Shown here: positions 17,963 through 39,940 of the stretch, one piece after another
Layout of the letters: each line of letters begins with the position of its first letter
Position numbering within the stretch: the first letter of the stretch is position 1
Assembly: GCA_964342815.1 (NCBI GenBank)
Contig: CAYFHS010000012.1
Location: 42,421-106,420, forward strand
Reading direction: 5' to 3'
DNA: 64,000 bases
DNA from: an uncultured archaeon
GTDB taxonomy: Archaea; Thermoplasmatota; Penumbrarchaeia; JASLWR01
Notes under the pieces: generated by a model
Told to the model about the DNA's origin: nothing
Seen by the model: only the letters and a program-made list of their open reading frames with translations
Database searches by the model: none
Translations under genes and position numbers: made by a program

Positions 17963-20900
17963 GTGTCCTCGATGTTAGAGTTTACCAACAGCTCTCTAAA
18001 AAAGGCCCTACTCGGGTTTGTCGTAGCCCTGCTATTTCTGATACCAATTATAATAGACGCTGAATCTCCGACATCCGGTGGAAAATTGCATGTACATATA
18101 GAAAACGTACAAGAAAATGACCCAATTTCGAATGTAAATGGCGAACCGACCAGCGGCATTACAGGAACCAGGAGTATATTGATCGAGGAGAGTTTCGAGA
18201 GCTACGATAATCTGGACAATACCAGCACCACTGCATTATTGTCCGATGGCAAGGCAATGCTATCGAGAACCCCGGCACCCGATAAAAAGACAACAATAAG
18301 CATTGACCTTGACTGGCTTTCGAATCCTGTCCATACTTATCCCTTTCATCCCAACGCCATGACCTATGATCCAATGATTCCATGTCTGGTTCTATCACTC
18401 CAGGGTCCAAAGGTACTGTACCGTGTAAATCTGGACAATGGAGACAAGCTCGATGAGATTCCAACCATAAGCAACAATAATAGCGGGATTGCGTACAACG
18501 GGGATTATTACTATTACTCTGTGGGTGCTGACTCCGATTCCAGTAAACCTGACGTATATAAATATCAAAAGGGCCAGGATAAGACCGCTGAATTTATTTC
18601 CAGTAAATCCAGCAAGGATGGATATCCCCTTACAGTGGTGGGCAATTATATTTACAGGGGAAAGGGCTATGAAGACGGAAGCAAGGATTGGGGGAAAATA
18701 AACCAGTTAGAAAAGGTGTCTTTGGCGGAACCAGACAAGGTATTGAGCACCTTCCAGCTGGGATTTACGGGGATGACCGATCTCGCTTTCGATGGCAAAT
18801 ACATCTGGGTGCTTGTTAACAGCTCTGATAAAGTCTCTTTATATCAATTTGATACGGATGGGAACAGCATTGGGACCTTCAAGGACTTTTATACTCCGAG
18901 AGCCGGGCTCAAACCATGCGGCCTTGCTTACGTTGATGGTACGGGGGATGAAGAAGATTCCCTGTATGTACTACTATACAAGGAGAGGGGCGAACCCGAT
19001 AACAGCCAATTGTTAAGGGTGAAGATGACAAGTCGTTATCAGTTAGAAGACACGATAATTTCGAAAACCTATGATGATTTCGAGGAACCATTATATGCAG
19101 TAAAATTCGAAGCTGTAACAACGACAACATCCTCAACCACTCTAGAATATTTCTATTCCAAAGAGAATGGAATAAATTGGGAGGAGGCAAATCTGAACGA
19201 ATGGATCGATTTCGAAGAACCGGTGAACAAACTTTCCTATAAGATAATATTGGGTACACGAAATCACGAAAAAACTCCTACATTATCCAACCTGAAAGTG
19301 CTGAAGAACGAGGTAGAAACTCCCGTTGCCAACTCCCCCACACATAATTTTTGGGCCAACACAGCGAACGTGAATTTCAAATGGACCTTCAATGATCCAA
19401 ACGAAGGTGACGCACAGGCGGCATTCGAGATTGAATTAGCTGAAAGTGACACGTTCAGCACGATTTACCGGGAACAGACCGTAACAAGCTTGGAAAGAAG
19501 CCATACTTTCACCGAAAATTTAAAAGACGGATTATTTTACTGGAGAGTTCGAACAAAGGACGATCACAATCAATGGAGCGCCTTTTCCGACCCATTCCTC
19601 GTCAATGTAAATTGGATATCTCCAGTGGGAAGTGTGATCATTAACAATGACAACCTTACCACCGATGACCGGAAAGTAGAATTGACCCTCGCTGCAGATG
19701 GTACCTACCCAGGCGTCATAGAGATGTATATCAGCAATAACCCCGCGGCTCCCAAAGACGGATCAGCATGGGAAATTTACGTGACAAGTTTCAACTGGAC
19801 CTTGGATAAGGAACTTGGTGAGAAAACAGTCCATGTCTGGTACCGTGACGAAAACGATCTGAAAAGTACTGTTGCAAAGGCCACCATCACTCTAGAAGAA
19901 AAAGCCGTCGATGTCGATACGGGAATTCTGGGTTGGGGAAAGATCGGAGCGGATTCAAAGGGGTATGGGGGCGTTGATATTTTTTACATCGTTCTCATCT
20001 TGGTTTTAATCGTTATCGTAGTAGTAGTGATCTTTGTAATAAAGAACAGAGGTGGAGGAGATTATTACGACGATGACTATGACGATGATGATGAAGAGGA
20101 GGAAGATGATCTGGATGTTCTGGAACAGATCCGTCGGAAGCGGAAGAAGGAAATGGGTGCGGAAATAAAGGAAGAGAAAGAGGACGTGATAGAGGAGGAA
20201 GAAGAGGAGGAAGAGAAATTCGAGAAAAAAGCCCACGGCCGCTATACCGACCTTTCAACGGAAGACGATTTTTCCATGGGCACCAGTCGTTACGGTGTTC
20301 CAGAAGAAGAAGAAAAAAAAGAAGAAAAGGAACTCAGCGGTCCGTATTCCATGAAATCATTGGAGGACGATTTCTCATTGGAACCCCAGAGATACGGGGG
20401 CCCTCCTTCCTTGGATGATTTCATGAAGAATATCGAGGACATGAGTGAAGAACCTCAAGCAGAAGAGAAAAAGTCCGCATCCATGCCCAAGGAAAAAGAA
20501 AAGACGCTCTCAAAAGAGGAAGCAAAGAAAGCCAGGGAACAGATAGAAATGCTGAAAAAACGCCGCCTGGACATTCTGGATTCATTGAGGTCAACTACAG
20601 ACAGCCGCAGACAGAAAGCACTTGAGCAGCAAATGGACGATATTCAGCAGCTGATTATTGGATTGAGAAAACATCTTCCCGCTGACGAAGAAGTGGACGA
20701 AGTCACTGAAGAGGAAGCCCCACCCACGGTAGAGGCGGAAAAGATTGAGGTAATGGATGTACCCAGCGATATAAAGGACCAGTTGAAAGAGGGAGCGAGA
20801 CGAGATAAAAAACGCGGGGTTGGCTTTGGATTTCTGGACCAAGAAGTAGCAGACACGGAAGAAAAAACCTCGCAACAACAACCGATATCTCCGGAAGTCC

Positions 20901-22069
20901 AAGCGAGGTTGGCACAGATACTCCAACAGTTACAGGTACTTCAACAGCAGCAGCTTGCGGTGCAGAACCAGATGCGGCAAACATCCGAACCCGGACAGCA
21001 GAGATTATTGAATCAACAGGTACAGGTGATGGCACAACAACAGCAGGCATTGCAGCAGGAAGCTCAAAGACTTCAACAACAGTCACAGCAAAAGTCACCC
21101 ACGGAGGAAAAGACCGCAATATCACCCGAAGTGGAAGCTAAACTGGCACAGATTCTTCAACAGCTGCAGGTCCTGGCTCAACAGAAAATGGCAGTACAGA
21201 ACCAGATGCGGCAGACTGCGGATCCTCAGATGCAGCAGACACTTAACCAGCAGTACCAGACCATAACGCAGCAACAACAGACATTGCAGCAGCAGGCGCA
21301 GTTACTTCAACAACAGGCTGCAGCGCTTCAACCTGAAGCAGCAGCACCACAGCCCGAACCGGCGGTAGCACCTTCGGACGTGGAGGCAAAGGCAAGACAG
21401 ATACTTCAGCAACTTCAGGCACTTGCTCAACAGCAGATAGCGATACAGAATCAGATGCGGCAGACCACAGACCCGGCGCAAAAACTGACATTGGCTCAGC
21501 AGGATCAAGCTTGCAAACAGCAGATGGAAGCTCTGAAAGCACAGGCTGCAGCGCTTCATCAGCAGTCTCAGTACCAACCACCGGCTCCTCCCCAGGAAGA
21601 GGCGCCGCCACCTGCTCCGACTCCCGAGATGGAGGCAAAGTTGAGACAGATACTAGGACAGCTACAGGCAATTCAGGAGCAGCAGGCAGTGGTACAAAAT
21701 CAACTTTCACAGACACAAGACCCGGGACAACAACAGGCTTTAAGTTCACATTATCAGTCACTTCAGCAGCAAGCTATGGCATTGAAACAGCAAGCGGAAG
21801 CAGTACAACAACAGGCAGCGGGAACCCCTGCACCACCAGCCCAAGCACCGGCTCCGCAACCTGCACCACAGAATGCACAGGCACAATATAACGCCGTGGC
21901 CCAACAGTACCAGACCCTGCAGCAGCAGAGTGCCGCCATCCAGCAGCAGCTTCAGCAGGCCAGGGATCCCGGGCAGCAGCAGGCCCTTATGCAGCAGTAT
22001 CAGGCCGTACAACAGCAGCTCGGCCCACTGGGCCAGCAGCTTCAACAGCTGCAGGCTGCACAACGATAG
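17963..22069 (+). CDS. bitopic giant membrane protein: extracellular beta-propeller-like and FN3-like domains, one TM, and a 674-aa cytoplasmic acidic + Q-rich repeat tail
   Basis: 1368 aa. The track start is GTG 17963, but ATG 17972 (MLEF...) has a better GAAGGTG spacer. Signal/anchor LLGFVVALLFLIPIII; mid-protein TM IVLILVLIVIVVVVIFVI (about nt 19973-20041); downstream DYYDDDYDDDDEEEEDD followed by the Q-rich repeats. Confidence 0.85.
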   Translation: MSSMLEFTNSSLKKALLGFVVALLFLIPIIIDAESPTSGGKLHVHIENVQENDPISNVNGEPTSGITGTRSILIEESFESYDNLDNTSTTALLSDGKAMLSRTPAPDKKTTISIDLDWLSNPVHTYPFHPNAMTYDPMIPCLVLSLQGPKVLYRVNLDNGDKLDEIPTISNNNSGIAYNGDYYYYSVGADSDSSKPDVYKYQKGQDKTAEFISSKSSKDGYPLTVVGNYIYRGKGYEDGSKDWGKINQLEKVSLAEPDKVLSTFQLGFTGMTDLAFDGKYIWVLVNSSDKVSLYQFDTDGNSIGTFKDFYTPRAGLKPCGLAYVDGTGDEEDSLYVLLYKERGEPDNSQLLRVKMTSRYQLEDTIISKTYDDFEEPLYAVKFEAVTTTTSSTTLEYFYSKENGINWEEANLNEWIDFEEPVNKLSYKIILGTRNHEKTPTLSNLKVLKNEVETPVANSPTHNFWANTANVNFKWTFNDPNEGDAQAAFEIELAESDTFSTIYREQTVTSLERSHTFTENLKDGLFYWRVRTKDDHNQWSAFSDPFLVNVNWISPVGSVIINNDNLTTDDRKVELTLAADGTYPGVIEMYISNNPAAPKDGSAWEIYVTSFNWTLDKELGEKTVHVWYRDENDLKSTVAKATITLEEKAVDVDTGILGWGKIGADSKGYGGVDIFYIVLILVLIVIVVVVIFVIKNRGGGDYYDDDYDDDDEEEEDDLDVLEQIRRKRKKEMGAEIKEEKEDVIEEEEEEEEKFEKKAHGRYTDLSTEDDFSMGTSRYGVPEEEEKKEEKELSGPYSMKSLEDDFSLEPQRYGGPPSLDDFMKNIEDMSEEPQAEEKKSASMPKEKEKTLSKEEAKKAREQIEMLKKRRLDILDSLRSTTDSRRQKALEQQMDDIQQLIIGLRKHLPADEEVDEVTEEEAPPTVEAEKIEVMDVPSDIKDQLKEGARRDKKRGVGFGFLDQEVADTEEKTSQQQPISPEVQARLAQILQQLQVLQQQQLAVQNQMRQTSEPGQQRLLNQQVQVMAQQQQALQQEAQRLQQQSQQKSPTEEKTAISPEVEAKLAQILQQLQVLAQQKMAVQNQMRQTADPQMQQTLNQQYQTITQQQQTLQQQAQLLQQQAAALQPEAAAPQPEPAVAPSDVEAKARQILQQLQALAQQQIAIQNQMRQTTDPAQKLTLAQQDQACKQQMEALKAQAAALHQQSQYQPPAPPQEEAPPPAPTPEMEAKLRQILGQLQAIQEQQAVVQNQLSQTQDPGQQQALSSHYQSLQQQAMALKQQAEAVQQQAAGTPAPPAQAPAPQPAPQNAQAQYNAVAQQYQTLQQQSAAIQQQLQQARDPGQQQALMQQYQAVQQQLGPLGQQLQQLQAAQR
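20520..22066 (+). repeat. 6 copies of a helix-turn-helix hairpin repeat of about 80 aa (one ancestral copy, then five Q-rich copies) separated by P/A/Q linkers
   Basis: The copies align on ...QILQQLQ[VA]L[AQ]QQ...[AV]QNQMRQT[STA][DE]P.QQ..L.QQ[YV]Q...QQQQ.LQQ.... A non-Q-rich copy (AREQIEMLKKRRLDILDSLRSTTDSRRQKALEQQMDDIQQLI) precedes them. Linkers include QPEAAAPQPEPAVAP and PPAPPQEEAPPPAPTP. Confidence 0.8.
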
Positions 22070-22131: not shown

Positions 22132-23082
22132 ATGAAGGATAATAAAAAGGTCTTCAGAAAGACCGAATCCGGTCTGAACTGCCCGAACTGCAGCCAGTTC
22201 ATGGGCCCGTTCAAAGTTTGCCCATACTGCAGGACAAAGGTAAAGAACCGCCTGGATATCAGGACCTTCAAGGCTATTAGCGTTGTTGTTGCCGTAGTGG
22301 GGATCGCCTTCTTATTGGTCTGGGCCAACATGAAAGATCGGGAAAAGTGGGATATTGAGGATCTGACCAAACGCCAGAATTACGCGTACCTAGAATTCAA
22401 CGGTACCGTGGTGGAAGATTCTCGTTATTATGTTTCATTCGGAGCGGAAGGGGAAAGACTCCCCGGTTCCCTAAGTTTCCGTTTTGACGATGGAACCGGG
22501 ATAATGGAGGTAAAAGCATACCAGGAGGTTGCCAAGGACCTTGTCAAAGAAAAGATGATCCCTGTTAGAGGCGACAGCATAAAAATTTCCGGCCCCGTCA
22601 ACTATCGCGGCAACGACATGACGCTGCTGCTGCAGGATTGGACAGCCCTCGAGATCGAGAGACCCGATCCCGATATTACCGTAACTATCGCAGACATTTA
22701 TGAGAATCCGGATGAAGATGCCTTTCCATTTGGAAAGATGATAAAAGTATCCGGTCTTTTAACTGGAGCGGTATTTGTGGCAGAAGATCTTGAAACGGAT
22801 TTTGCTGACAAGGTCGGTAATATGAAAATTCTGATAAAGGACGAGAATGACAACACAGCCATTATTCATGTGGCCCAATCTCTCTACTCACCATATTATC
22901 TCTATAACGAAGAAGTTGGCGCTGGAGAATATAACTTATATGAAGTGGGGACTGAACTCATAACGGTTACCGGTCATCTCGTCTGGGACAAGTATGCGCC
23001 CAACGAGGTTACGGGCGGGAAGGGGAACTGGGTTATTGAACCACAGAGACTGGAAGACGTACATCTGGAGGTGGTTTCATAG
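22132..23082 (+). CDS. Zn-ribbon / single-TM / extracellular tandem OB-fold-like protein (2 OB-like modules)
   Basis: 316 aa. GGGGG RBS. N-terminal CPNC...CPYC, TM ISVVVAVVGIAFLLVWA, then segments with an OB (tRNA_anti-like) pattern: YAYLEFNGTVVED...LSFRFDDGTGIMEVKAY...IPVRGDSIKISGPVNY and GKMIKVSGLLTG...MKILIKDENDNTAIIHV...ELITVTGHLVW. Confidence 0.65.
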   Translation: MKDNKKVFRKTESGLNCPNCSQFMGPFKVCPYCRTKVKNRLDIRTFKAISVVVAVVGIAFLLVWANMKDREKWDIEDLTKRQNYAYLEFNGTVVEDSRYYVSFGAEGERLPGSLSFRFDDGTGIMEVKAYQEVAKDLVKEKMIPVRGDSIKISGPVNYRGNDMTLLLQDWTALEIERPDPDITVTIADIYENPDEDAFPFGKMIKVSGLLTGAVFVAEDLETDFADKVGNMKILIKDENDNTAIIHVAQSLYSPYYLYNEEVGAGEYNLYEVGTELITVTGHLVWDKYAPNEVTGGKGNWVIEPQRLEDVHLEVVS

Positions 23083-23129
23083 CCGAGAAGATCGAAGAAA
23101 CCGAGAAAAAGCCAGTTGGGAAGGAAGAA

Positions 23130-24380
23130 GTGCTGGCCGCAGGCAAGAAACAATGTCCCGCTTGCGGTAAATACGTTGACAAGGAACGCCGTATCTGCCC
23201 CGAGTGTACCGCACATTTCAGCTACCGCATAAAGGAATCTACCCTGGTGAAATTCTCATCTATATTTGTTGTAATAGGCGTCGTATTCTTTCTGATAGCA
23301 GCATATTGGCCAACAGGTATAACCGACGTGGAAGACATGGACCGATATGACAATTTCTCAATCATGACTTTCAAGGGAAAGGTGGTTGAAGCACCCGACT
23401 ACGACGTTTATCCTTACCAGGAATACGGTGAGATGAAATTAAATATAAGCGACGAGACAGGTTATTTACAAGTACTATGCAACAGCGGGGTGACCGAGAG
23501 TCTGATAAAGAGCGGAAAGATACCAGCCGTTGGCGACACCGTGGAAGTGACAGGGCGAGTTCTTTTCATTGAGTCCGTGTCCCCCGGGGCATGGAAAAAC
23601 ATCACTCTTTCAAATCAAGGCCTCAAATTATATCTTAAAGGGGAAGCAGAACTAAAGGGGCGGGAAGATGCGTTCAAACGGGTGGAGGTGATGTACGAGG
23701 ATAACATCAAGATATTTCCCAACAAATACACGAAAAAGTCGATTTCCAATATTGCCGGAAAACCCAAAGAAACCTTTGAAATTGGCACAAAAGTTGTGGT
23801 GAGCGGAAAAGTTGTTTCTGTTTTAACAGATTACCCCACTGCTTATCAGTTCCATATCGGTGACGAAGATAATGCAAAAAATCTCATGGTATATGTTCCA
23901 AAGGGTCTCGTTCAACTATCTGGCATTGAATTAGAATCGGAAGAAGATATCATTTTCAATATAAAACCGGGTTCGGATGTTACAATAATCGGTGCTTTGA
24001 TATATTATGACAATAAAGAGATATGGGAATTGGTACCAACATCTGTGGGGACGAAAATCAAAGTGGGTGGAAATCCGTGTTTCGAAGTTACTCAAGAGGA
24101 TTCTTCGTTTACATTTACCGTGGACAAAATAATGTCCAACAAGGGATTGTACGAGAATGCACGCGTAGGATTGAATAATGTCAAAATAGTAAATAAAAAC
24201 TATAAATTGTATGTTAAAGACCAGGGTGGTACGGATGAAATTGTTCTTTTCAGCTATGGAAGTTTAGGAGAATATAATACAGGTGACATCGTTAACGTCG
24301 AAGGGCAATTTATATATTATGAAGGAAAAAAGATATGGGAAATTAAACTAAATGCCGATGATATCAGGGAGGTGGTCTGA
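23130..24380 (+). CDS. paralogous Zn-ribbon / single-TM / extracellular OB-fold-like protein (3 OB-like modules)
   Basis: 416 aa with a GTG start. CPACGKYVDKERRICPEC, TM FSSIFVVIGVVFFLIAAYW, then three units such as MTFKGKVVEAP...MKLNISDETGYLQVLC...PAVGDTVEVTGRVLF, KVVVSGKVVSV...FHIGDEDNAKNLMVYV...SDVTIIGALIYY and ...LYVKDQGGTDEIVLFSY...GDIVNVEGQFIYY. Confidence 0.65.
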   Translation: MLAAGKKQCPACGKYVDKERRICPECTAHFSYRIKESTLVKFSSIFVVIGVVFFLIAAYWPTGITDVEDMDRYDNFSIMTFKGKVVEAPDYDVYPYQEYGEMKLNISDETGYLQVLCNSGVTESLIKSGKIPAVGDTVEVTGRVLFIESVSPGAWKNITLSNQGLKLYLKGEAELKGREDAFKRVEVMYEDNIKIFPNKYTKKSISNIAGKPKETFEIGTKVVVSGKVVSVLTDYPTAYQFHIGDEDNAKNLMVYVPKGLVQLSGIELESEEDIIFNIKPGSDVTIIGALIYYDNKEIWELVPTSVGTKIKVGGNPCFEVTQEDSSFTFTVDKIMSNKGLYENARVGLNNVKIVNKNYKLYVKDQGGTDEIVLFSYGSLGEYNTGDIVNVEGQFIYYEGKKIWEIKLNADDIREVV

Positions 24381-25724
24381 GTGAACATGCCGCTTGATCT
24401 GATGCTTTTTACCATTGCAATTACCACAGTTGCCGCCGTGGTCGGGGGTCTCATTACAATGATGTTCCCTGGAATGCACGTTTACAACCTTTTGGGATTC
24501 ATGATGATATTTTCCATGGCCACGGTGGAGAGCATTAACCCGATCTATCTGGCGTCTATCATAGTTGGATTGATGCTGGGTTACATCATGACCTTCTCTT
24601 CCATAAGTACTCTTTATTTCCAGGCACCCGACGACTCCACAATGTTCTTCATGATGCCTTCCCAGAAATACATGATGAAGGGAAAGGGGCATGCAGCTGC
24701 CGTGCTGGGTGCTGTTGGCTCGCTTGTTGGAGTTCTCATCGTGGTGGTGGGTCTCCCACTGGGAGGATTCATAATCAAGATATTTTACGATGTGTTCAAA
24801 GAAGCAATGTTCTTTCTCACCGGTATCGTGATCTGCTTCATCCTCATGTCCGAATGGCCCAAGGATTTCGGACAGGGACAGACCAAGTGGCAGCGGATGA
24901 GGGACGGGTGGTCCACTCTCATGTGGGGATATCTGGTGTTCTTCCTGGCCTCAATACTCGGTATAATAAACTTCAATAAACCGCTCATTCCGGCATCCAA
25001 CGCCTTTCAGAGTCTGGCGCCCATCTTTATCGGTCTTTTTGCCATTCCCTCCATGATCACCAACGTGATATCGAAGACAAACATTCCGCCGCAGTTCGTT
25101 TCCAAAAGCGTCCATCTAAGAGCCCATCATATTATTCAGAGCGGGGTATCCGGTGCGGCAGGAGGTCTGTACGGCGCTGTAACACCTGGAGTGACCCCGG
25201 GCCCATCTGGTTATATGGCGGGCCACGCGACAGCACAGAGCGGAGAGACGAATTTTCTAATGTCTATGAACGTGAACAGGATAGTGTATTACGTTGGGGC
25301 GGCCACGCTGCTGCTGCACCCCGACGTTCACCTAAGGAGAGGCGGGGTATCCATGTTCATTGACCTTTTCGGCTACTCTCCCAAGAGCTCCGCGGATTAC
25401 TATCTCGTAATCTCAGCCCTATGTTTCGCAGCATTTTTCTCGTTCATTCTGATACTTGGTTTGTCCAGGGTGGCGGGGAAATTCGTGAGAAAGCTCGACT
25501 TCAGAATAATATCAATAATCAGTATCGTGGTGCTTGTGATCATTGTGGTGCTGTTCACCTCATGGCAGGGCCTGATAGTCCTCACCGTTGCTTCCGGACT
25601 CGGTCTCTTACCGGTTCTTTTCCAGACTCGCAGGATGAATCTTCTCGCAGTTCTGCTGACACCCATGTTCCTCAATATGAGCGGTGCCGGCGGTACCGTT
25701 GCAAAATTACTGGGGTTGATATAG
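24381..25724 (+). CDS. polytopic integral membrane protein, DUF112/TctA-like (tentative)
   Basis: 447 aa with about 10-12 hydrophobic spans. GTG start directly after the upstream TGA, with GGGAGGTGG 7 nt upstream. The motifs GGLITMMFPGMHVYN and GAVTPGVTPGPSG recall the paired G-x-x-PG-x-H/S motifs of archaeal TctA-family (COG1784-type) proteins. Confidence 0.55.
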   Translation: MNMPLDLMLFTIAITTVAAVVGGLITMMFPGMHVYNLLGFMMIFSMATVESINPIYLASIIVGLMLGYIMTFSSISTLYFQAPDDSTMFFMMPSQKYMMKGKGHAAAVLGAVGSLVGVLIVVVGLPLGGFIIKIFYDVFKEAMFFLTGIVICFILMSEWPKDFGQGQTKWQRMRDGWSTLMWGYLVFFLASILGIINFNKPLIPASNAFQSLAPIFIGLFAIPSMITNVISKTNIPPQFVSKSVHLRAHHIIQSGVSGAAGGLYGAVTPGVTPGPSGYMAGHATAQSGETNFLMSMNVNRIVYYVGAATLLLHPDVHLRRGGVSMFIDLFGYSPKSSADYYLVISALCFAAFFSFILILGLSRVAGKFVRKLDFRIISIISIVVLVIIVVLFTSWQGLIVLTVASGLGLLPVLFQTRRMNLLAVLLTPMFLNMSGAGGTVAKLLGLI

Positions 25725-26812
25725 TGAAAGGCCTCACACATTACATCGTAGGGGTCGCCGTGGCGACATTCTTCATTGACGCAGTCCAGATGACGCTTAT
25801 CGACAAGTCCTGGATAATACTTCTGGGCGGTATCTTCGGAATACTTCCCGATTTCATGGATTTCCGCTTCGCAAGATACTTGATAGTACACGATTACGAA
25901 GTTACACCCGGTCACAAGGAGCTGAATCCGCGCGTTGTGGCCGATACCATAGTAAAGGCCATCGACGAAGCGGCCCAGACCGGGAAATCCGTAAAGATAA
26001 AACTTCACTCCATGAAGGTAACCCAGGACCTCTGGAGGCAGTATTCCGTCCAGTTCGATACGGACCGTAAGGAAGTTATTGCAAGGATCGGACCTCTCGT
26101 GACCACTGGTCAGACAGAACAACCGGACACGGCACCAAAGGGAGACAAGGCAATGGCGGTTGCGAAGTACAAGAGCGACATCAACCACACTTACCACCTG
26201 GCAACTAACATAGATATCTGGCACGGGAACGATTACGAGTTCGTCCCCGAGGGCGATAAGGTTCGAGTGGATTTCATACCATGGCACAGAAAGATATGGC
26301 ATTCTCTCACAGCCGCTTTCCTCTTCGCCCCAATAGGACTGCTTCTATATGGTCTGGATTACGAGGGAATTCTAGCCGCCATAATAATAATCGTGGCATT
26401 CTGGTCCCATGTTCTCGCGGACCAGATGGGTAATCTCGGATCGAACTTGATCTATCCATTCACTAAAAAGAGGTCAAGGGGTTTGAAGCTCACCAGCGCA
26501 GCGGACCCATTTTCAAATATCTCTTTCGTTTGGGGTGCCATCGCGATAATCATCTTCAATTTCAACGCGTTCAATTTCACCCATACCTTCATGATGTGGG
26601 GGATCGACGATTATCATGGTCTGAATTACTTCATAGGATTTGGGGAGTATTTTCTGCTGATTGTGGTGATACCCATGGTCCTTCTGAAACTGGGGATAAC
26701 GTTTTACAAAAAGAAATTCATTACACGGACGGTAAAGGAAGAGCCCTTATCGGATGAGGAAAAGGAGGCCCTTGAGTCACTGGCGGAGATAAGCGACGTG
26801 GTAAGGGGGTAA
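25724..26812 (+). CDS. membrane-bound metal-dependent hydrolase, DUF457/YdjM-like, with a soluble insertion of about 150 aa
   Basis: The GTG start overlaps the upstream TAG (TAGTG). VKGLTHYIVGVAVATFF..., ...GGIFGILPDFMDF..., ...WHSLTAAFLF... and ...FWSHVLADQMGNLGSNLIYPF... match the His/Asp pattern of the YdjM family. The longer track ORF from 25421 overlaps the upstream gene by 300 nt and I rejected it. Confidence 0.65.
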   Translation: MKGLTHYIVGVAVATFFIDAVQMTLIDKSWIILLGGIFGILPDFMDFRFARYLIVHDYEVTPGHKELNPRVVADTIVKAIDEAAQTGKSVKIKLHSMKVTQDLWRQYSVQFDTDRKEVIARIGPLVTTGQTEQPDTAPKGDKAMAVAKYKSDINHTYHLATNIDIWHGNDYEFVPEGDKVRVDFIPWHRKIWHSLTAAFLFAPIGLLLYGLDYEGILAAIIIIVAFWSHVLADQMGNLGSNLIYPFTKKRSRGLKLTSAADPFSNISFVWGAIAIIIFNFNAFNFTHTFMMWGIDDYHGLNYFIGFGEYFLLIVVIPMVLLKLGITFYKKKFITRTVKEEPLSDEEKEALESLAEISDVVRG

Positions 26813-26815
26813 TAA

Positions 26816-29800
26816 ATGAATGCCGAGCCGAATATTATTTATAAAAGGGCCTTTACAGCCATCGTATCCGTCGTTCTGCTGACAAGCGCTTTACTGAGCT
26901 TGCTTCCATTGGCAGGATCATCACCCGATAGAGAAAGCAGATCGGTACTGGAAATAGTTATCAGCGAGGTCGCGCCTCACGGTGGCGGTTTTCAGGGTGA
27001 GGACTGGCTCGAACTTCTTGTGGTCTCGGGCAGCGGGGACATCTCGGATTACGTGGTGACGAGTTTCGACAGCCAGGATGATGACGAGAGCTTCGCGAAT
27101 TCCACAGTTACGGTGAATGAGGGCGAACGCCTCTTGGTACATTACAACGGTAGCTTAGCGGACGAAACGGATATAACGGGAGACACTAACGGGAACGGAT
27201 ACATCGATCTGTACATTGCTTCGTCCGAGCTCTCACGTACTCATGAACAGGCCGCTCTCTATACAGCTTCAGATTATTCCGTTATGGTGGACGCCGTATG
27301 CTGGAGCAAAGGGGATATCACCGCAAGCGAGGCGGCAGATGCCCAGAACCTTGTTGACCTGGGAATGTGGCCCTCGAACTCTGCATCAGACATGGTTTAC
27401 TCGGGTGACATAGACAAAGGGATAAGCATAGCAAGAAAGGAGGGGAGGAATGACACCGACAAGCAAAGTGATTGGTACGTGGAACCGAAAAGTTCTCCAG
27501 GGGCCGAAAACAAATTTTTTAACTTTACTGGAGAGGTGCTAATAACCGGGGTATACCTTTCCGGATCCCCCAAGGCACTTACAATAAAGGTGATCACCGG
27601 AGGTGGTGATGTTTCCTGCCTGTCCGTATCCGATCTCGATCGTGCCCCAATCTTTCTCGCCACCGAACCGGTCAGTCTCACTCAAGGTGATGAGCTTATA
27701 TTATATTTCGGAACGGGAACGAATGAAACAGACTCCATAGGGGATATAAATCAGAACAATCTTTGGGAACTGTTTATCGATCCAAAGATTTCTCCCACAG
27801 GTACCACGGATGCAGTTGCACTCTTCAACGGACTGGACGTAATGGACGCTGTTGCATGGTGTACCGATGGAAAGCTCAGTTCAGGTGAAATATCCGACCT
27901 GGAGTTCCTAATTTCCCAAAACGCATGGGACGGAAATACCAGTGAACACTGTGTGAATATCTCCTTGATGGGCTCACGAAATGAGCTTGTTCGATCAGAA
28001 CTAAACGACACGAATACCAGTGCCGACTGGACCATCAGCGGTGAGATAAACAAAGAGATCGATCTCAAGAAATTCGACCTTGAGACCTTCCGGAACGTGG
28101 ATTCTGTTACATGTGGTGTTTCCCCCGATTCGAGCTTTTGGTTATTGGCCGGGTTAATTGAGAATGCAACGGAAAGTATCCATATCGAGGTTTACCAGTT
28201 CGATAATTTTAAAATCGCTGAGAAAGTATTTGCCGCTCAAGAAAGGGGCGTTGAGGTGAAGGTATTGCTGGAGGGAGCGCCGGTTGCCGGTATACCTGAC
28301 ATGGAAAAATATGTTATGAAAGTAATAACTGATAAGGGAGGGGAGGTCCGTTATATAATCACGGATTCGGATGCTGGTATAAAGGAGAGGTACACAAACG
28401 TTCACTCTAAATTCATGGTTGTTGATGGGGAGAAATCTTTCATTACTTCCGAGAATTTCAGGGATGACGCTATTCCCTACTACGGTACCAAGGGAAACAG
28501 AGGATGGTCGGTTCTCATCGAATCGGTTGAGGTTGCGGAATACTTTGAAGGGGTTTTCTCATATGATTTCACACCCAGCAGCCCAGATACCTTTCCATTT
28601 ACCGAGAACGATCCTGTTTACGGGGGTCCCCCGGATGGCTTCAACCCGTCATCCAGCCCAAAAAGCGGAAAACACGAAAAGGTTTTCCACGAACAAAAAT
28701 TCACGGGTAATATCTATGTAACTCCTATCCTGTGCCCGGACCATACCGGTGATTTGAAGGCCATTTTACCACTTATTGAAAGCGCAAAAGATTATATCTG
28801 GGTAGAGCAACACAGCGTGGGAGTGATATGGGACGACAGTAATAATAAAATTGATAATCAATATTTGGATGCACTTCACCAGGCGGCAAGGCGGGGCGTG
28901 GAGGTGAGGGTTATCCTCGATTCCAAGTTTGAGTTCGATAATAAACATGAGGAGATCGTCAATAATTTAAATGAGCTTGCCAAGACAGAAAGACTAAACA
29001 TGGTAGCAAAGTTATCCTCCAATAAACGAATCGAAGTGGAAAAGGTTCATAATAAAGGAATCATAGTGGACGGTATGAAAGTACTGGTATCGTCTATCAA
29101 CTGGGCCACCAATTCCATCTATAACAACCGCGAGGCCGGGGTCATTATAGAGAACGAAGAGGTTGCCGATTATTATTCAAAGGCATTCCTTCTGGATTGG
29201 GGTGAGAACAATACAGGGGTCATAGAGGGAATCGTCACGAACCCGGATGGCAACTATATCTCAGGGGCCGATGTGAAGATTGAAGGCACGGGCTTCAATA
29301 CGATAACAGAATCGGATGGTAGTTTCATCATAACCGGCGTTCCGGTGGGAACCTATATTTTGAAGGTCACTGCCGTGGGATTCGAAGAGCATTCCCAGGG
29401 TGTCACGGTGGAATTATGGGTGCCAGCCAATGTCACATGCATCATAGGTTCCTGGGGAGCTATTGAGGGAATTGTAAAAGATATCAATGGAAACCCAATG
29501 AAAGGAGCGAAGGTGATAATCGACGATACCGATATAGTCGTTTACACAGACGATAAAGGCCGTTATCTTATAGAGAAAGCCCCGGTTGGCAGTTATTATC
29601 TGAACATAACAATGAAAAAATACCGGAATCTTCTCACCCAGGTTGAAGTGGAGATGGGTAAGATTTATCAGGCAGAGTCGACCATTACTAAGGAAAGCTC
29701 AACCGGGACCGATGGAGAAGATTCCAATAAACCACCCCTTTATCTTCTGGTAATTCTAGGAGTTATCCTTGTGCTGGTATTGGTTATTTTTTCAGCGATT

Positions 29801-29902
29801 GTACTAAACGCAAAAAAAGTAAGCAAATTGGAAAAGGGAAAGAAAGTAACCCGCATCAGCGGAGATCAGCATCCCTTTGACGATAAGATCGAAAAGGAAT
29901 AA
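26816..29902 (+). CDS. secreted, TM-anchored LTD-LTD-PLD(HKD)-PLD(HKD)-CarboxypepD_reg x2 hydrolase (nuclease or phospholipase D superfamily)
   Basis: 1028 aa. Signal-like FTAIVSVVLLTSALLSLLPLAG. Two lamin-tail-like domains (LEIVISEVAP...EDWLELLVVSG... and VLITGVYLSG...). Two HKD motifs, VHSKFMVVDGEKSFITSENF (His codon 28403-28405) and VHNKGIIVDGMKVLVSSINW (His codon 29048-29050). Two units such as GVIEGIVTNPDGNYISGADVKIEG...TYILKV. C-terminal TM plus a basic tail. Confidence 0.85.
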   Translation: MNAEPNIIYKRAFTAIVSVVLLTSALLSLLPLAGSSPDRESRSVLEIVISEVAPHGGGFQGEDWLELLVVSGSGDISDYVVTSFDSQDDDESFANSTVTVNEGERLLVHYNGSLADETDITGDTNGNGYIDLYIASSELSRTHEQAALYTASDYSVMVDAVCWSKGDITASEAADAQNLVDLGMWPSNSASDMVYSGDIDKGISIARKEGRNDTDKQSDWYVEPKSSPGAENKFFNFTGEVLITGVYLSGSPKALTIKVITGGGDVSCLSVSDLDRAPIFLATEPVSLTQGDELILYFGTGTNETDSIGDINQNNLWELFIDPKISPTGTTDAVALFNGLDVMDAVAWCTDGKLSSGEISDLEFLISQNAWDGNTSEHCVNISLMGSRNELVRSELNDTNTSADWTISGEINKEIDLKKFDLETFRNVDSVTCGVSPDSSFWLLAGLIENATESIHIEVYQFDNFKIAEKVFAAQERGVEVKVLLEGAPVAGIPDMEKYVMKVITDKGGEVRYIITDSDAGIKERYTNVHSKFMVVDGEKSFITSENFRDDAIPYYGTKGNRGWSVLIESVEVAEYFEGVFSYDFTPSSPDTFPFTENDPVYGGPPDGFNPSSSPKSGKHEKVFHEQKFTGNIYVTPILCPDHTGDLKAILPLIESAKDYIWVEQHSVGVIWDDSNNKIDNQYLDALHQAARRGVEVRVILDSKFEFDNKHEEIVNNLNELAKTERLNMVAKLSSNKRIEVEKVHNKGIIVDGMKVLVSSINWATNSIYNNREAGVIIENEEVADYYSKAFLLDWGENNTGVIEGIVTNPDGNYISGADVKIEGTGFNTITESDGSFIITGVPVGTYILKVTAVGFEEHSQGVTVELWVPANVTCIIGSWGAIEGIVKDINGNPMKGAKVIIDDTDIVVYTDDKGRYLIEKAPVGSYYLNITMKKYRNLLTQVEVEMGKIYQAESTITKESSTGTDGEDSNKPPLYLLVILGVILVLVLVIFSAIVLNAKKVSKLEKGKKVTRISGDQHPFDDKIEKE

Positions 29903-30018: not shown

Positions 30019-31218
30019 ATGAGCTTGAAAATTATCCATTCTCCAAAGCCGATACTATTCGCAATTATTGCAGTAATAATCATTTTCCTACCAATTTTTT
30101 CTGTTACACAACCAGCAAGATCACAAGCCGTGGCCACCGGGACCGCGCTGCGGGAAGTTAACCTGAGGATGAATGCAAACGGACTTACGCCCATCACTCC
30201 TCCGGAAGACGAGACGACAAGAAAAAGATCGACGCCAAGTGGACTAATGCCTTTCCCGGTCCCTGGAATATCTCTTATAAACCCGAATTTTCAGAAAGTG
30301 GGAACGTGGGAGCTGGATAATATCGCGGATGTTATTTCTATTCAGCAGCCGGTGAAATTCATAATATGGTTGTCCACATCCAGTGCCACAAGCGGGGATA
30401 TAAAGTTCACCCTGAAATACGGTACTGTAGTTGTGGCCGGACCAACCGTGCTCGATGCCAACAATATCGATACCTCAGCAAAGCGGTACGAGGTTTCCTC
30501 ACATGCGAACCTCACCACCACGGATAGCGGAAAACCGTTGGGATTAGAGATTGAGTCCAAAATAAACGGGGACGGGGTTATGATCCATTATGGAGGTTAT
30601 CAAGAGGATTCGGGGGTTAGTTTCATGAGCGATGCGGTGAAATTCAAGTATTTGCATGCAGGACCGAAGGAATTTTGTGTGGAATTCAGCGATGCTTTTC
30701 GGGCTCCCGTAAACGACATCTACCCCATAATCTTCGTAGATGATATGGCTGTGTATGACGAGGATGGAAACGTTCTCGAGCGGACAATATCAGAGAACGG
30801 TAACAATTTATTCAAATGGAAATTGAAGCTCCTTCCGGGAGTACATACCTTTCTCGTGGGGATCGCTTATGCTAAAAACAGGGACATCAACCTTACCTGG
30901 AACACACAGGTGAGTCTCAAGGTCGTATTAGAAGATAATGACCGAAGTTGGTTACAAGGTATGGGTACTGGAGATATTATCGTCATGTTCTTGTTGATGA
31001 TAGGAGTGCTGGTATTTTTCATATCCATTTTCGCGGTTCTATCGTCCCGAAGTTCCGCAAAAAATGTATACGTGCGCAGATCACCAATACCAGATCGGTA
31101 TCGGTTGATCGTAAAAAAGAAGATGGACCGCTTCCATATGAAGCCAAGACCCGCTGTAAGGTCCGCAAGGCAAACCGGGGGAAAGAGGGCTTTTCATAAA
31201 GCGAAAAAAAAGAAGTAA
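30019..31218 (+). CDS. secreted, C-terminally TM-anchored surface protein, function unknown
   Basis: 399 aa. N-terminal anchor/signal ILFAIIAVIIIFLPIFSV, a beta-rich ectodomain, TM IIVMFLLMIGVLVFFISIFAVL, and a long K/R-rich tail ending KAKKKK. Confidence 0.6.
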   Translation: MSLKIIHSPKPILFAIIAVIIIFLPIFSVTQPARSQAVATGTALREVNLRMNANGLTPITPPEDETTRKRSTPSGLMPFPVPGISLINPNFQKVGTWELDNIADVISIQQPVKFIIWLSTSSATSGDIKFTLKYGTVVVAGPTVLDANNIDTSAKRYEVSSHANLTTTDSGKPLGLEIESKINGDGVMIHYGGYQEDSGVSFMSDAVKFKYLHAGPKEFCVEFSDAFRAPVNDIYPIIFVDDMAVYDEDGNVLERTISENGNNLFKWKLKLLPGVHTFLVGIAYAKNRDINLTWNTQVSLKVVLEDNDRSWLQGMGTGDIIVMFLLMIGVLVFFISIFAVLSSRSSAKNVYVRRSPIPDRYRLIVKKKMDRFHMKPRPAVRSARQTGGKRAFHKAKKKK

Positions 31219-33929: not shown

Positions 33930-36900
33930 CTACTTCAGCTTGATCCTAAACTCGTTTTCGATATCTTCCAGCATGTTCTCCGCCTCCTGCACACCAACAC
34001 CCTTGCCGGTAGCCTCCTTAATGGTCTTTTTAACCTCTTGGAGGACCTTTTTCCTTCTTCTTTTCCTTAAAAATACAGAGATTACAAAGAAAGCGATAAT
34101 AATTATGAAAGCAAAGGCAATGGAGAGCAAAAACACCCAGGAGCTGGCATCCTGTTTCACTTCAAGGTCCATATTCAGTTTCCCGCCGTCCAGGATCGTA
34201 ACGGTGGAGTATTTTGAATCCTTCACAATAATCGAGATATTATGTTTTCCTGACTGGGCTTCCCATATTGCAGTTGCAGTCCTCGTTTCCCCGGGGAATA
34301 TATGTGGGAACCAGATAACCCGAATCCTGGTTCCGTCCACCATGAAAGTAACGTTCACGTTCCTCGCTGCAGCGGTACCATTGTTCTTGATATGAACATT
34401 CAAGTGGACATCATCCCCTTCCATATACTCCCCTTGGTCCACGGGGACGAAGATGAGCTCCAACAGCGGGGCAGTGATGAAAATCTCGATATTTCTTATC
34501 TCTGACCAGGCACCGTCATCGTCCTCGACGCTGAATGTAATAATATGAAGACCCAGTGAGATATTGTGCCTGGAACGCAGATCCAGGTTCGAAAAATTTC
34601 CCAATTTACCGTCGACGCTCGAAACCCACAAATAGTCTCGGATATAACCTTTTTCGTACACCGCCTCATCAACTCCCCACCCTGATATCTTCATATTGCT
34701 TCCTCCCTTTTCCATTTCCCTCGATCGGGATTGGATAAAAGCAACTGGAATGTCATTGACCTCAAGGACCTTCAACGTGAACGTAAAGCTGCTCATCTCA
34801 CCAGATGGGTCAACCGCGGATACGGTTATCTCTATTTCCCCGAACCAGTTGAGGGTGGGTTCCAACCTCAGCGAGTTGTTCTCCATTATTGAAAGGTTGA
34901 TCTCTGCAAATCCTGATTGGGCAACATACAACAGTTCCAGGTCATCGGGATCGGAAAAACAATCACCAACATCCAAATAACCCGTAGTATCCTCTTTTAT
35001 GGTTACGATTTTCTCAAAACCGATGATGTCCGGTTTATCATTTACAAGGCTTACCATGAAAGAGATTGTATGATGAGCTTCGTCCTGTCCGTCGCTGGCT
35101 GTAAAAGTAATATTCTCCTTACCGTACCAGTTGTGAGCGGTTGTAATATTCACGATTCCAGACGAAATGATATTAATGATAATATTGGATGAATTGGTAA
35201 AGTTAACAGCAAGAATATCCTCGTCTATATCATAGAATATATCCGTCATATCGATTTGGTATATGGTATCATTATCCTCCTCGAGTTGAATTTCTTTTGG
35301 AGCTCCGTCGAATACCATGGGTGGATCATTCACATTCTCCCAGCTGAAGTTGAAAAATTCCTCCACGTAATCTCCGTCCTTGTCCGTGAACTTCATTAGA
35401 ACGCTTGAGTTTCCGTGAAAATTATTAATAGGATTGAAAACGAATTTGTTCGGCCCATCACCTGGCGTTACCGAGCCTATCTTGAATTTATTGAAGGTCT
35501 CAAGAGTCCAAGTTGTTTGAAGTGGATCTCTCCCGTCCTCCACGTCCCACCCGTATACGTTGAAATCCACGTTGATGGCGTGGTCTTCGAGAGAAGTAAA
35601 GGTCGGCGTAGAATTGATCATGGGAAAATTATTCACTGCCTTGAATGCTCTCAATTTCCAATCCGAGATGAAACCACTAGGATTGGTATATCTAAGCCGG
35701 AGGTCCAGTATGGTATTTATGGGTATATCCAGCGGTGGGGTGTAGCTAGAGTAGAAGTAAACCAATTCTCCATCGTCATAGAGTTCAACGGGCAATTCAT
35801 TCCAACCGCCCTCGGTATCGCCAAGCCAGATCTGGAGAGTGAGGTTCAGACCGCTTTCCCCGAATACGACATCGGTAAGATTCATTGTAATGGGAATGGC
35901 TTTTCCACGGTAGGCTATGGGTTCATGGCTGATGTCCAGCACTTTTGGATATATTACTTCGATGGTATCATTGATCGTAGTTCCTCTGTTACCCGCAACG
36001 TCTTCTGCCCATACGTAAATGTGATGTTTCCCTTCAGGGGCATCTAAAATATAATTCGTTTTATTGGTCCAGATGCCGTTATCGGTTCCACTACCATCGA
36101 AAAAGGAGATGTAATATCCCTTTATCTGTGAAGATGGAGCCGCATCGGAAAATCCGCTCCAGTTGAGGTAGATTGTCTTGTCCGAGCAATACTCGGATTT
36201 GTTCTCTATCTCAAGGGAAGCAGACGTTGACGAGGGTGCAATGGTATCAATGAAAATATCGTCCGATACGGCATCACCAATATTGAAAGAATAATCCTGT
36301 GCCCAGGCGTAAACCGTTGTGGGACCCTGATTAGGGAGTGAAATGTAATCGGTAGGCTGCCCGCCCCACAACCTGCTTGCGGGGATGACCGGTGGGGCCC
36401 CTGCGGTCCCCCATTTTTCCCATTTTGCTGCAACAGCGGCTCCACCATTGTGTTCGTAATAGTGCATTTCGAATCTATGGAAACCGCGTTCTAGATAGAC
36501 GCTGACGGTGTTTTCCGTATAGGCCCTGCTGTACCAATGGCTCAGTAACCTGACGTCATCGATATAAAGGCGTGCACCGTCGTCAGATCCTATGGTGAAA
36601 TTGTATGTAGTGGATTCATCCGCGAAAATGGAGCCGTTCCAGATTATCGAATATTGGTTGTTGCCGCAGCCGCCTCCGGGCCCGCCGTTGCCGAAATTCC
36701 GATTTATTGTGCCATCATACCTGCTGAACTTGTACTCGTTGAAGTTCATTCCATTAAAATAATGGCCCCTTATGCCGCCATTGGATATCTGACCGCTCAT
36801 TGTACCTTCATTATTTGTCGTCCCGAAATAATATCCTGCCAAACCCCTGGTGGCATCGTTATTGTCTGAAAAACCTGACCATCGGACCTGAGCAACTGTA

Positions 36901-39683: not shown

Positions 39684-39940
39684 ATGTACACCCAAAAAAT
39701 CTGGAAATGGTAGAGACCTATGAATACATGTTACAATGTTGCTGCTGTTTATCTACTATTATCAGACAATATTTCGATTCCAGTAATACAATCGGTATAT
39801 AAAATATCTGGTATATTATATATTAATTGTTGAACAAATTCTAAATCCATATCCCTTTTATTTTCTCGTTCATTATATACTTCAAAATTTTAGGGAAAGT
39901 GGATTTCAATGATGGGCCAATTTTTCAATTCAGCATTGCG

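Follow-up and report, generated by a model that had tools for sequence, protein, structure and literature searches.

A conserved gene module of OB-fold, TctA-like and YdjM-like proteins in an uncultured Thermoplasmatota archaeon: a candidate apparatus for nucleic-acid uptake

How do archaea bring DNA across the cytoplasmic membrane, and could the five-gene operon described here be part of the answer? The archaeal DNA transporter has not been identified, no ComEC homologues have been identified in archaea, and a screen in one methanogen is the only lead (PMC10133366). The operon lies at positions 22132-29902 of a 64,000-nucleotide stretch of DNA from an uncultured archaeon of the Thermoplasmatota (class Penumbrarchaeia; contig CAYFHS010000012.1, positions 42,421 to 106,420), which is referred to throughout as the window. 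It encodes two membrane-anchored OB-fold proteins, a TctA-like permease, a YdjM-like membrane protein and a surface enzyme of the phospholipase D (PLD) superfamily, and a first-pass annotation made from the DNA letters alone had read the set as a machine for the uptake of nucleic acid. We have examined the individual proteins, their homologues and the gene order of related loci, and conclude, with a probability that we put at roughly 0.55, that the operon specifies an apparatus of the cell surface and membrane for capturing nucleic acid (DNA, most likely) from outside the cell and importing it whole or in fragments. The overall reading of the first-pass annotation is, in our judgement, likely to be right, although several of its particulars have had to be revised.

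The five open reading frames (ORFs) are all on the + strand and follow one another with gaps of 47, 0, -1 and 3 nt, in that order:

22132-23082, + strand: OB protein 1, 316 aa
23130-24380, + strand: OB protein 2, a paralogue of the first, 416 aa
24381-25724, + strand: TctA/DUF112-like polytopic membrane protein, 447 aa
25724-26812, + strand: YdjM/DUF457-like membrane protein, 362 aa
26816-29902, + strand: surface-anchored PLD enzyme, 1028 aa

A G-rich, Shine-Dalgarno-like run is found 5' of every one of the five starts, in keeping with the GGAGG-like spacers noted in the first pass. The start codon of the fourth gene, a GTG, overlaps the TAG stop of the third (TAGTG, -1 nt), and this start is confirmed by the homologues, all of which begin M-K-G-x-x-H (invariant M1-K2-G3-H6). 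The coordinates, strand and gaps first assigned to the operon are thus upheld by the list of ORFs together with this homologue-supported GTG, and gene callers give the same five genes for identical contigs in public data. The DNA stems from a 217-kb contig of a Tara Oceans marine metagenome (ERR868468). The closest genome relative is a Thermoplasmatota metagenome-assembled genome (MAG; L011) whose TctA-like protein is 94% identical to that of the window.

This arrangement recurs in distantly related organisms. When one genome per GTDB species was scanned with the family motif [FY]x[LIV][ML][ST]EWPK[DGA], at least 355 loci were confirmed, of which the best 80, all from MAGs, were used; conservation was counted in 85 related loci by searching all ORFs with iterative hidden Markov models (HMMs) built from the window proteins, the denominators below being the loci with enough flanking sequence. 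Carriers among the best 80 belong to the Thermoplasmatota, Hadarchaeota, Chloroflexota/Anaerolineae, Verrucomicrobiota, Kiritimatiellia, Lentisphaerae, Myxococcota, Planctomycetota, Wallbacteria and others, and the 85 module loci span archaea as well as at least six phyla of bacteria. In 67 of 79 loci the gene directly upstream of the TctA-like one encodes an OB protein, and two or more OB genes are present in 25 of the 79; a YdjM-like gene follows the TctA-like gene directly in 48 of 74 loci and lies nearby in 6 more. A reverse look-up that started from a YdjM homologue arrived at the same arrangement (L097). Since this gene order, a direct observation, recurs in 85 loci of distant phyla, the arrangement is not due to chance. 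The PLD gene, by comparison, is found further downstream in 12 of 58 loci (~20%). The conserved core is an OB protein with a TctA-like protein, usually accompanied by a YdjM-like protein, and the PLD enzyme is a lineage-specific accessory; the expectation that all five genes would travel together therefore held for the OB, TctA-like and YdjM-like genes but not for the PLD gene.

Apparent gene fusions were also seen. Among the predicted proteins of our protein library, P0182 (852 aa) combines several OB folds with a TctA-like domain, P0251 (529 aa) a zinc ribbon and transmembrane helix with a TctA-like domain, and P0284 (563 aa) an OB fold with a TctA fragment, although read-through in gene calling is possible in any single case. 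Taken as a group, these apparent OB-TctA fusions argue for a physical complex between the two proteins. Variation around the core was encountered as well. A Lentisphaerae MAG (L009, 3983-10273) carries two divergent copies of the module side by side, one in the order YdjM-TctA-OB on the minus strand and the other in the order OB-TctA-YdjM on the plus strand. At the locus reached by reverse look-up (L097, 1-4675) three genes stand ahead of the module, one for a protein with PKD and OB domains that exceeds 1074 aa, one for an OB protein of 270 aa and one for a protein of 465 aa that has no Pfam match, from which it appears that elaboration of the receptor varies between lineages. The loci of a haloarchaeal DUF112 protein (P0075) and of a divergent protein (P0090) showed no OB or YdjM neighbour, and P0075 was rejected as a profile seed because the matches were then dominated by haloarchaeal proteins.

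The features of the two OB proteins are as follows:

22180-22230, + strand: cytoplasmic zinc ribbon of OB protein 1 (C17, C20, C30 and C33; CxxC...CxxC)
OB protein 1, + strand: transmembrane helix at aa 45-63, then an extracytoplasmic OB-fold region (hydrophobicity and HMM)
23154-23207, + strand: zinc ribbon of OB protein 2 (C9, C12, C23 and C26; CxxC...CxxC)
OB protein 2, + strand: transmembrane helix at aa 39-57 and a firm first OB fold at aa 68-146, in an ectodomain longer than that of its paralogue

Each protein has a basic N-terminus that holds the CxxC...CxxC cysteines and is followed by a single hydrophobic helix; in OB protein 2, the side N-terminal to that helix is the one enriched in basic residues. 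The cysteines are more than 90% conserved across 93 OB homologues from both domains of life, and zinc-ribbon models, cysteines and helix together bear out the description of the pair as paralogues with a zinc ribbon and one transmembrane segment. Against Pfam, OB protein 2 matches PF01336 above the curated cut-off (E 4.6e-9) and Zn_ribbon_3 at 1.3e-4, and OB protein 1 matches PF01336 weakly, below the cut-off (E 1.5e-3). An HMM of the first OB domain of the family matches both proteins with independent E-values of 1e-24 to 1e-28 (3e-28 for aa 76-161 of OB protein 1). The first-pass annotation had credited each paralogue with two to three OB modules: the first module is firm in both, but the further ones are marginal (independent E-values of 0.016-0.1). 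Two to five OB repeats occur in 41 of the 92 family members that match the OB-domain HMM.

The affinities of these OB folds are with proteins that bind nucleic acid. Pfam matches among the 93 family members are to PF01336 (72/93), tRNA_anti_2 (49/93), RMI2 (18/93) and the ComEC-type DUF4131 (7/93), and the family profile finds archaeal RPA (1.8e-7), the ExoVII large subunit, STN1 and YhaM in the PDB. That the OB modules belong to nucleic-acid-binding OB families is accordingly well founded in their domain matches and is the conclusion supported here.

The third gene product matches Pfam TctA (PF01970) over its full length with E 2.3e-28, so that its initial classification as TctA/DUF112-like stands. 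It carries the family motif SEWPK at aa 157-161, and an alignment of its family contains 35 invariant residues, including E158, P160, K161, R417 and R418. The AlphaFold2 (AF2) model is all-helical with a pLDDT of 82; neither a sequence profile nor a fold search of the model found a relative of this protein in the PDB, and fold searches of the TctA-like and YdjM-like models against the PDB gave nothing significant, with TM-scores of <=0.24. We regard the protein as a candidate translocator.

The Pfam family that this permease matches, that of the TctABC tripartite tricarboxylate transporters, raises the first alternative, namely that the operon serves the transport of a small anionic non-nucleic solute such as a carboxylate, a uronate or another acidic sugar. 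The OB proteins would then replace TctC as receptors for oligosaccharides or other ligands, and the YdjM-like and PLD proteins would be peripheral. Oligosaccharides, too, can be ligands of OB folds, polymer degraders from the Verrucomicrobiota, Kiritimatiellia, Lentisphaerae and Anaerolineae are numerous among the carriers, the double module of Lentisphaerae L009 is flanked by genes for a dehydrogenase, lyxose isomerase, PfkB and mannitol dehydrogenase, and a GH3 glycosidase gene lies upstream of the module in L053. Unlike the tripartite transporters, however, the module has no TctB or TctC gene, either within the operon or among the neighbouring genes examined, and the OB proteins occupy the position of the binding protein. 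The profile of the window TctA family, with E up to 1e-3, reaches no more than 1,930 clusters in a set of 1.84 billion representatives; this is a small clade, and its size suggests that it stands apart from the canonical TctA proteins, which the profile does not seem to reach. The OB domains match nucleic-acid-binding rather than sugar-binding OB families, glycoside hydrolases are not enriched among the operon-linked neighbours, the accessory genes are of nuclease or phosphodiesterase types, and genetics in a methanogen, considered next, points to DNA (PMC10133366). On balance we think transport of a non-nucleic anion unlikely.

In Methanococcus maripaludis, MMJJ_13020, an OB-fold protein with one transmembrane helix, and the adjacent MMJJ_13030, which is TctA-like and has 11 transmembrane helices, are each essential for natural transformation, as established by transposon insertion, in-frame deletion and complementation (PMC10133366). 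The TctA-like homologue of Methanoculleus thermophilus is likewise essential, a secreted thermonuclease was also among the hits of the M. maripaludis screen, and the authors (Fonseca et al. 2023) proposed that the TctA-like protein is the missing archaeal DNA transporter (PMC10133366). In its architecture this pair resembles that of the window: a PF01336 membrane-anchored OB gene lies directly upstream of a PF01970 TctA-like gene, TctB and TctC are absent, and the need for a secreted nuclease parallels the PLD enzyme of the window. The window clade differs in being distinct and larger, with proteins of ~445 aa, the SEWPK motif and OB proteins that bear zinc ribbons, several OB modules in the family and often two OB paralogues; its module also adds a YdjM-like gene and, in some lineages, a PLD protein with lamin-tail domains (LTDs), and it has a wide distribution among bacteria. 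The table published for the M. maripaludis screen lists no YdjM-like gene (PMC10133366).

The sequence searches suggest, short of proof, that any relationship of the methanogen protein is a distant one. Named among the lower-ranked profile matches listed are archaeal DUF112 proteins of 390-415 aa (E 1e-45 to 1e-57) from Woesearchaeota, Aenigmatarchaeota, Hydrothermarchaeales and Euryarchaeota, and at three of five sampled loci of this tier a gene for a protein of 118-124 aa with a transmembrane helix and an OB fold is adjacent. This family link to archaeal DUF112 genes with OB neighbours is observed directly and extends the pairing of OB and TctA-like genes to at least two clades of the group. 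At a fourth sampled locus, from a marine archaeon (L092, 2462-6185), a secreted SNase is encoded two genes upstream, an echo of the thermonuclease hit of the M. maripaludis transformation screen; SNase (thermonuclease) and RNase_T-like exonuclease genes both lie just upstream of the 394-aa DUF112/TctA-like gene there. The statement in the first-pass annotation that no such system had been described was therefore mistaken as regards the core: the OB-TctA pair is already published as a candidate component of archaeal DNA uptake (PMC10133366) and is not categorically new. Absent from the literature searched are the YdjM partner with its insert, the zinc-ribbon receptor, the LTD-PLD accessory and the broad bacterial spread with gene fusions.

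The fourth gene product matches Pfam YdjM (PF04307) with E 1.2e-14 and 54.6 bits against a cut-off of 29. Within it lies one conserved feature that sets it apart:

25883-26311, + strand: alpha/beta insert of the YdjM-like protein, aa 54-196 (~140 aa), defined by alignments and AF2 secondary structure

This insert is present in every aligned member of the family, so that both parts of the first-pass description, a YdjM/DUF457-like protein and a soluble insert, are sustained. The invariant residues of the family are H6, D43, D46, H188, R189, H193, H229 and D233, and the AF2 model has a pLDDT of 89.6, with no fold match in the PDB. Lysine plus arginine counts in the short loops of 41 homologues, read by the positive-inside rule, give a predicted topology of six transmembrane helices with both termini in the cytoplasm, which would put all the invariant His and Asp residues, together with the insert, on the cytoplasmic side of the membrane. 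In matching PF04307 and keeping the His/Asp constellation the protein resembles Escherichia coli YdjM and YbcI, DUF457 proteins that are predicted to be membrane metal hydrolases; it differs from them in its ~140-aa insert, in being about twice as long as the 176-position Pfam model and in its genomic tie to the OB-TctA module. In the literature E. coli ydjM itself is given as a LexA/SOS-regulated gene. To our knowledge metal-dependent hydrolase activity has been shown for no member of the YdjM/DUF457 family, and we know of no substrate for it. A literature match to 'DUF457' in a preprint on Cap1 was discarded as a false match to DUF4579.

The presence of an OB protein, a polytopic membrane protein, a putative hydrolase and a surface nuclease candidate in one operon had led to its description as a disassembled ComEC. 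The analogy holds at the level of the parts list: both systems would combine an outward-facing DNA-binding OB fold with a polytopic membrane part, a metal-dependent hydrolase (predicted, in our case) and a separate surface nuclease, and in both the OB fold can be fused to the channel, as the apparent fusions in the window family indicate. The surface nuclease EndA of the pneumococcus assists ComEC, the OB and beta-lactamase domains of which face outward (PMC12663950). The putative hydrolase of the window operon, in contrast, has another fold, and the prediction for its site is a cytoplasmic orientation. A Pfam scan of the five proteins found no Competence domain (PF03772) and no Lactamase_B; DUF4131 has no match in the window OB proteins and matches 7 of the 93 family members weakly (best E 3e-9), with a score below the curated cut-off in the only member inspected (L058). 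Neither the operon nor the flanks examined contained a gene like ComFA or ComFC. The comparison with ComEC is a useful analogy; no homology was found.

The fifth protein, the PLD enzyme, is built as follows:

PLD enzyme, + strand: N-terminal hydrophobic segment at aa 15-33 and C-terminal transmembrane anchor at aa 978-996
PLD enzyme, + strand: divergent LTD-like region, aa ~40-420
PLD enzyme, + strand: two PLD (HKD) domains, aa ~445-800 (Pfam PLDc_2, E 5e-38)
28403-28426, + strand: HKD motif 1, HSKFMVVD, aa 530-537 (HxKxxxxD)
29048-29071, + strand: HKD motif 2, HNKGIIVD, aa 745-752 (HxKxxxxD)
PLD enzyme, + strand: two CarboxypepD_reg domains, aa ~803-960, ahead of the C-terminal anchor (Pfam)

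Both HxKxxxxD motifs are intact, and the two HKD domains named in the first pass are present as two PLDc_2 matches with motifs beginning at aa 530 and 745; the two CarboxypepD_reg domains were missing from that description of the 1028-aa protein. Of the two LTDs that it had named, the first has weak support: profile-profile alignment (hhalign) with the LTDs of homologues gives a probability of 65% and E 6e-5 for the first repeat only (aa ~45-120), but Pfam LTD has no match at E up to 1 in aa 40-420, and a pair of LTDs was not confirmed. The module-linked PLD homologues of other Thermoplasmatota and of Anaerolineae have one to three clear LTDs.

With regard to the substrate of this enzyme, the nearest sequences in the PDB are Nuc, MitoPLD/Zucchini and NucT (all at ~3-6e-5), and among the protein models the best score is for DrmC (91 bits; NCBIfam 7.7e-26), followed by NucT (51), ClsB (49) and cardiolipin synthase (42). 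The placement of the domains with Nuc-type nucleases holds in so far as Nuc, NucT, Zucchini and DrmC are nearest, but the margin is narrow, and with 51 bits for NucT against 49 for ClsB the sequence cannot decide the substrate class. The HKD motif is common to the window enzyme, Helicobacter pylori NucT and the plasmid endonuclease Nuc, which are its best sequence matches of solved structure; it differs from them in holding two HKD domains in one chain as a pseudo-dimer, in its fusion to an LTD-like region, a pair of CarboxypepD_reg domains and a C-terminal anchor, and in a similarity to cardiolipin synthase models that is nearly as strong. NucT is a PLD nuclease implicated in the purine salvage and natural transformation of H. 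pylori (PMC5714352).

Two further explanations take the PLD enzyme as their starting point. If it were a phospholipase or an enzyme of the cardiolipin synthase type, the YdjM-like protein could be a lipid hydrolase and the TctA-like protein a flippase or exporter, and the operon would remodel membrane lipids or the envelope. The first PLD domain does score with the ClsB and cardiolipin synthase models (5.5e-13 and 7e-11), the PLD and YdjM-like enzymes are both at the membrane, and the absence of a known YdjM substrate suits this explanation. The best PLD matches, however, are to nuclease types (DrmC, Nuc, NucT and Zucchini), the conserved partners are OB proteins of the nucleic-acid type, and the PLD homologues linked to the module carry LTDs, which are commonly fused to secreted nucleases and phosphoesterases; moreover, the PLD gene, at 12 of 58 loci, is too rare to determine what the module does. 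We therefore consider lipid remodelling improbable. The match of the PLD domains to DrmC, a component of DISARM (E 2e-27 in PADLOC, 7.7e-26 in NCBIfam), could instead be taken to mean that the operon is an anti-virus defence module built around a DrmC-like nuclease. Yet the other four proteins match no PADLOC model, the flanks that were examined showed no gene for DrmA, DrmB or a methylase, and the enzyme is predicted to be extracellular and is lacking in the majority of loci; across phyla the module retains its gene order, and the neighbouring genes examined are mostly of ordinary metabolic or housekeeping types. A role in defence is, in our view, very improbable indeed. Non-nucleic anion transport, lipid remodelling and defence are each less well supported than nucleic-acid import.

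Import of nucleic acid receives further, contextual support from Candidatus Natronoplasma, in which the full five-gene set directly follows a deoC-deoB-deoA-cdd-deoD cluster, encoding deoxyribose-phosphate aldolase, phosphopentomutase, pyrimidine-nucleoside phosphorylase, cytidine deaminase and a purine/uridine phosphorylase (PNP), and is itself followed by an HD dNTPase-like gene. Cluster and dNTPase-like gene together point to the use of DNA breakdown products. Surface enzymes of related kinds are found elsewhere: an NPP-type phosphodiesterase gene follows YdjM in a member of the Verrucomicrobiota (L052), genes for LTD proteins follow it in two Thermoplasmatota (L013, L051), and LTD-PLD proteins occur in the Thermoplasmatota and Anaerolineae. 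Several observations weigh on the other side. Outside the module the flanks are not conserved and are mostly unrelated to DNA; synteny there is lineage-specific, with GNAT genes in the Anaerolineae and otherwise assorted genes, and the sugar-metabolism genes around Lentisphaerae L009 belong to this picture. Those TctA-family proteins that have been characterised move small carboxylates by secondary transport, and the operon contains no ATPase or helicase to pull DNA. The metal site of the YdjM-like protein, predicted to face the cytoplasm, is a poor fit to a role in degrading a strand outside the cell, and the PLD scores for NucT and ClsB are almost equal. Finally, no Methanococcales protein was present among the homologue-search matches or the lower-tier profile matches that were named (20 archaeal-tier look-ups).

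Our current working model of nucleic-acid uptake is that the anchored PLD enzyme, on its LTD-like stalk, would cut DNA at the cell surface, and that the two membrane-anchored OB proteins would hold single-stranded DNA or oligonucleotides at the membrane, where their cytoplasmic zinc ribbons may couple to some partner inside the cell. The TctA-like protein would move the substrate across the membrane, and the YdjM-like protein, whose His/Asp metal site and insert would face the cytoplasm, would process or release the incoming molecule. The domain identities on which the model draws are direct observations; what we infer is the substrate, the direction in which it is transported, each of the enzymatic activities and the use of the cargo as food or for recombination. 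The cargo may be long ssDNA that serves recombination or short fragments that serve nutrition; the Natronoplasma context favours nutrition, and the methanogen genetics shows transformation to depend on the OB-TctA pair (PMC10133366). That OB receptor, TctA-like translocator and YdjM-like hydrolase make up a true ComEC-independent DNA importer is a more doubtful proposition, which we put forward tentatively; it would extend over the Thermoplasmatota and Hadarchaeota, in a minimal form over DPANN archaea and methanogens, and in bacteria over the Chloroflexota, Verrucomicrobiota, Kiritimatiellia, Lentisphaerae, Myxococcota and Planctomycetota.

Further genes around the operon in the window deserve mention; an Rfam scan of the window found no RNA element. 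Upstream, on the same strand and separated from the operon by 62 nt, a 1368-aa protein (17963-22069, +) has an N-terminal hydrophobic segment, a large ectodomain, one transmembrane helix and a long Gln/Ala-rich repeat tail at the C-terminus with about six copies of the unit QILQQLQ...QNQMRQT; homologues at the same position occur solely in the closest relatives (L010-L012). A 399-aa protein without a Pfam match (30019-31218, +), encoded on the same strand 116 nt 3' of the PLD gene, has an N-terminal hydrophobic segment and, at the other end, a C-terminal transmembrane helix with a basic tail. Its place in L011, a close relative, is taken by a gene of comparable length; the 399-aa protein lies outside the widely conserved module. 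Further downstream, a 1146-aa protein (43992-47432, +) with a purple-acid-phosphatase N-terminal domain and calcineurin-like metallophosphoesterase, fn3 and Big_5 domains is probably a secreted phosphoesterase, which would fit scavenging of extracellular organic phosphate by this organism. Two giant ORFs lie on the minus strand (33930-39695, 1921 aa, and 1431-8777, 2448 aa); precomputed matches to PA14, CARDB and cadherin-like domains suggest that the 1921-aa product is a surface adhesin or an S-layer-associated protein.

This study turns a genetic lead from a single organism into a defined, widely distributed and testable module, the function of which we infer. To the published OB-TctA pair the larger module adds a YdjM-like protein with a unique insert, a zinc-ribbon receptor and surface enzymes of the LTD-PLD, SNase and NPP types; it gives the DUF457/YdjM family a testable role and offers concrete proteins for purification, complex modelling and deletion. 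A ComEC-independent importer, if that is what the module proves to be, would be the missing archaeal DNA translocase and a second, independent prokaryotic solution to DNA uptake, and dissolved DNA would then join the polymers usable by the abundant heterotrophic marine Thermoplasmatota.

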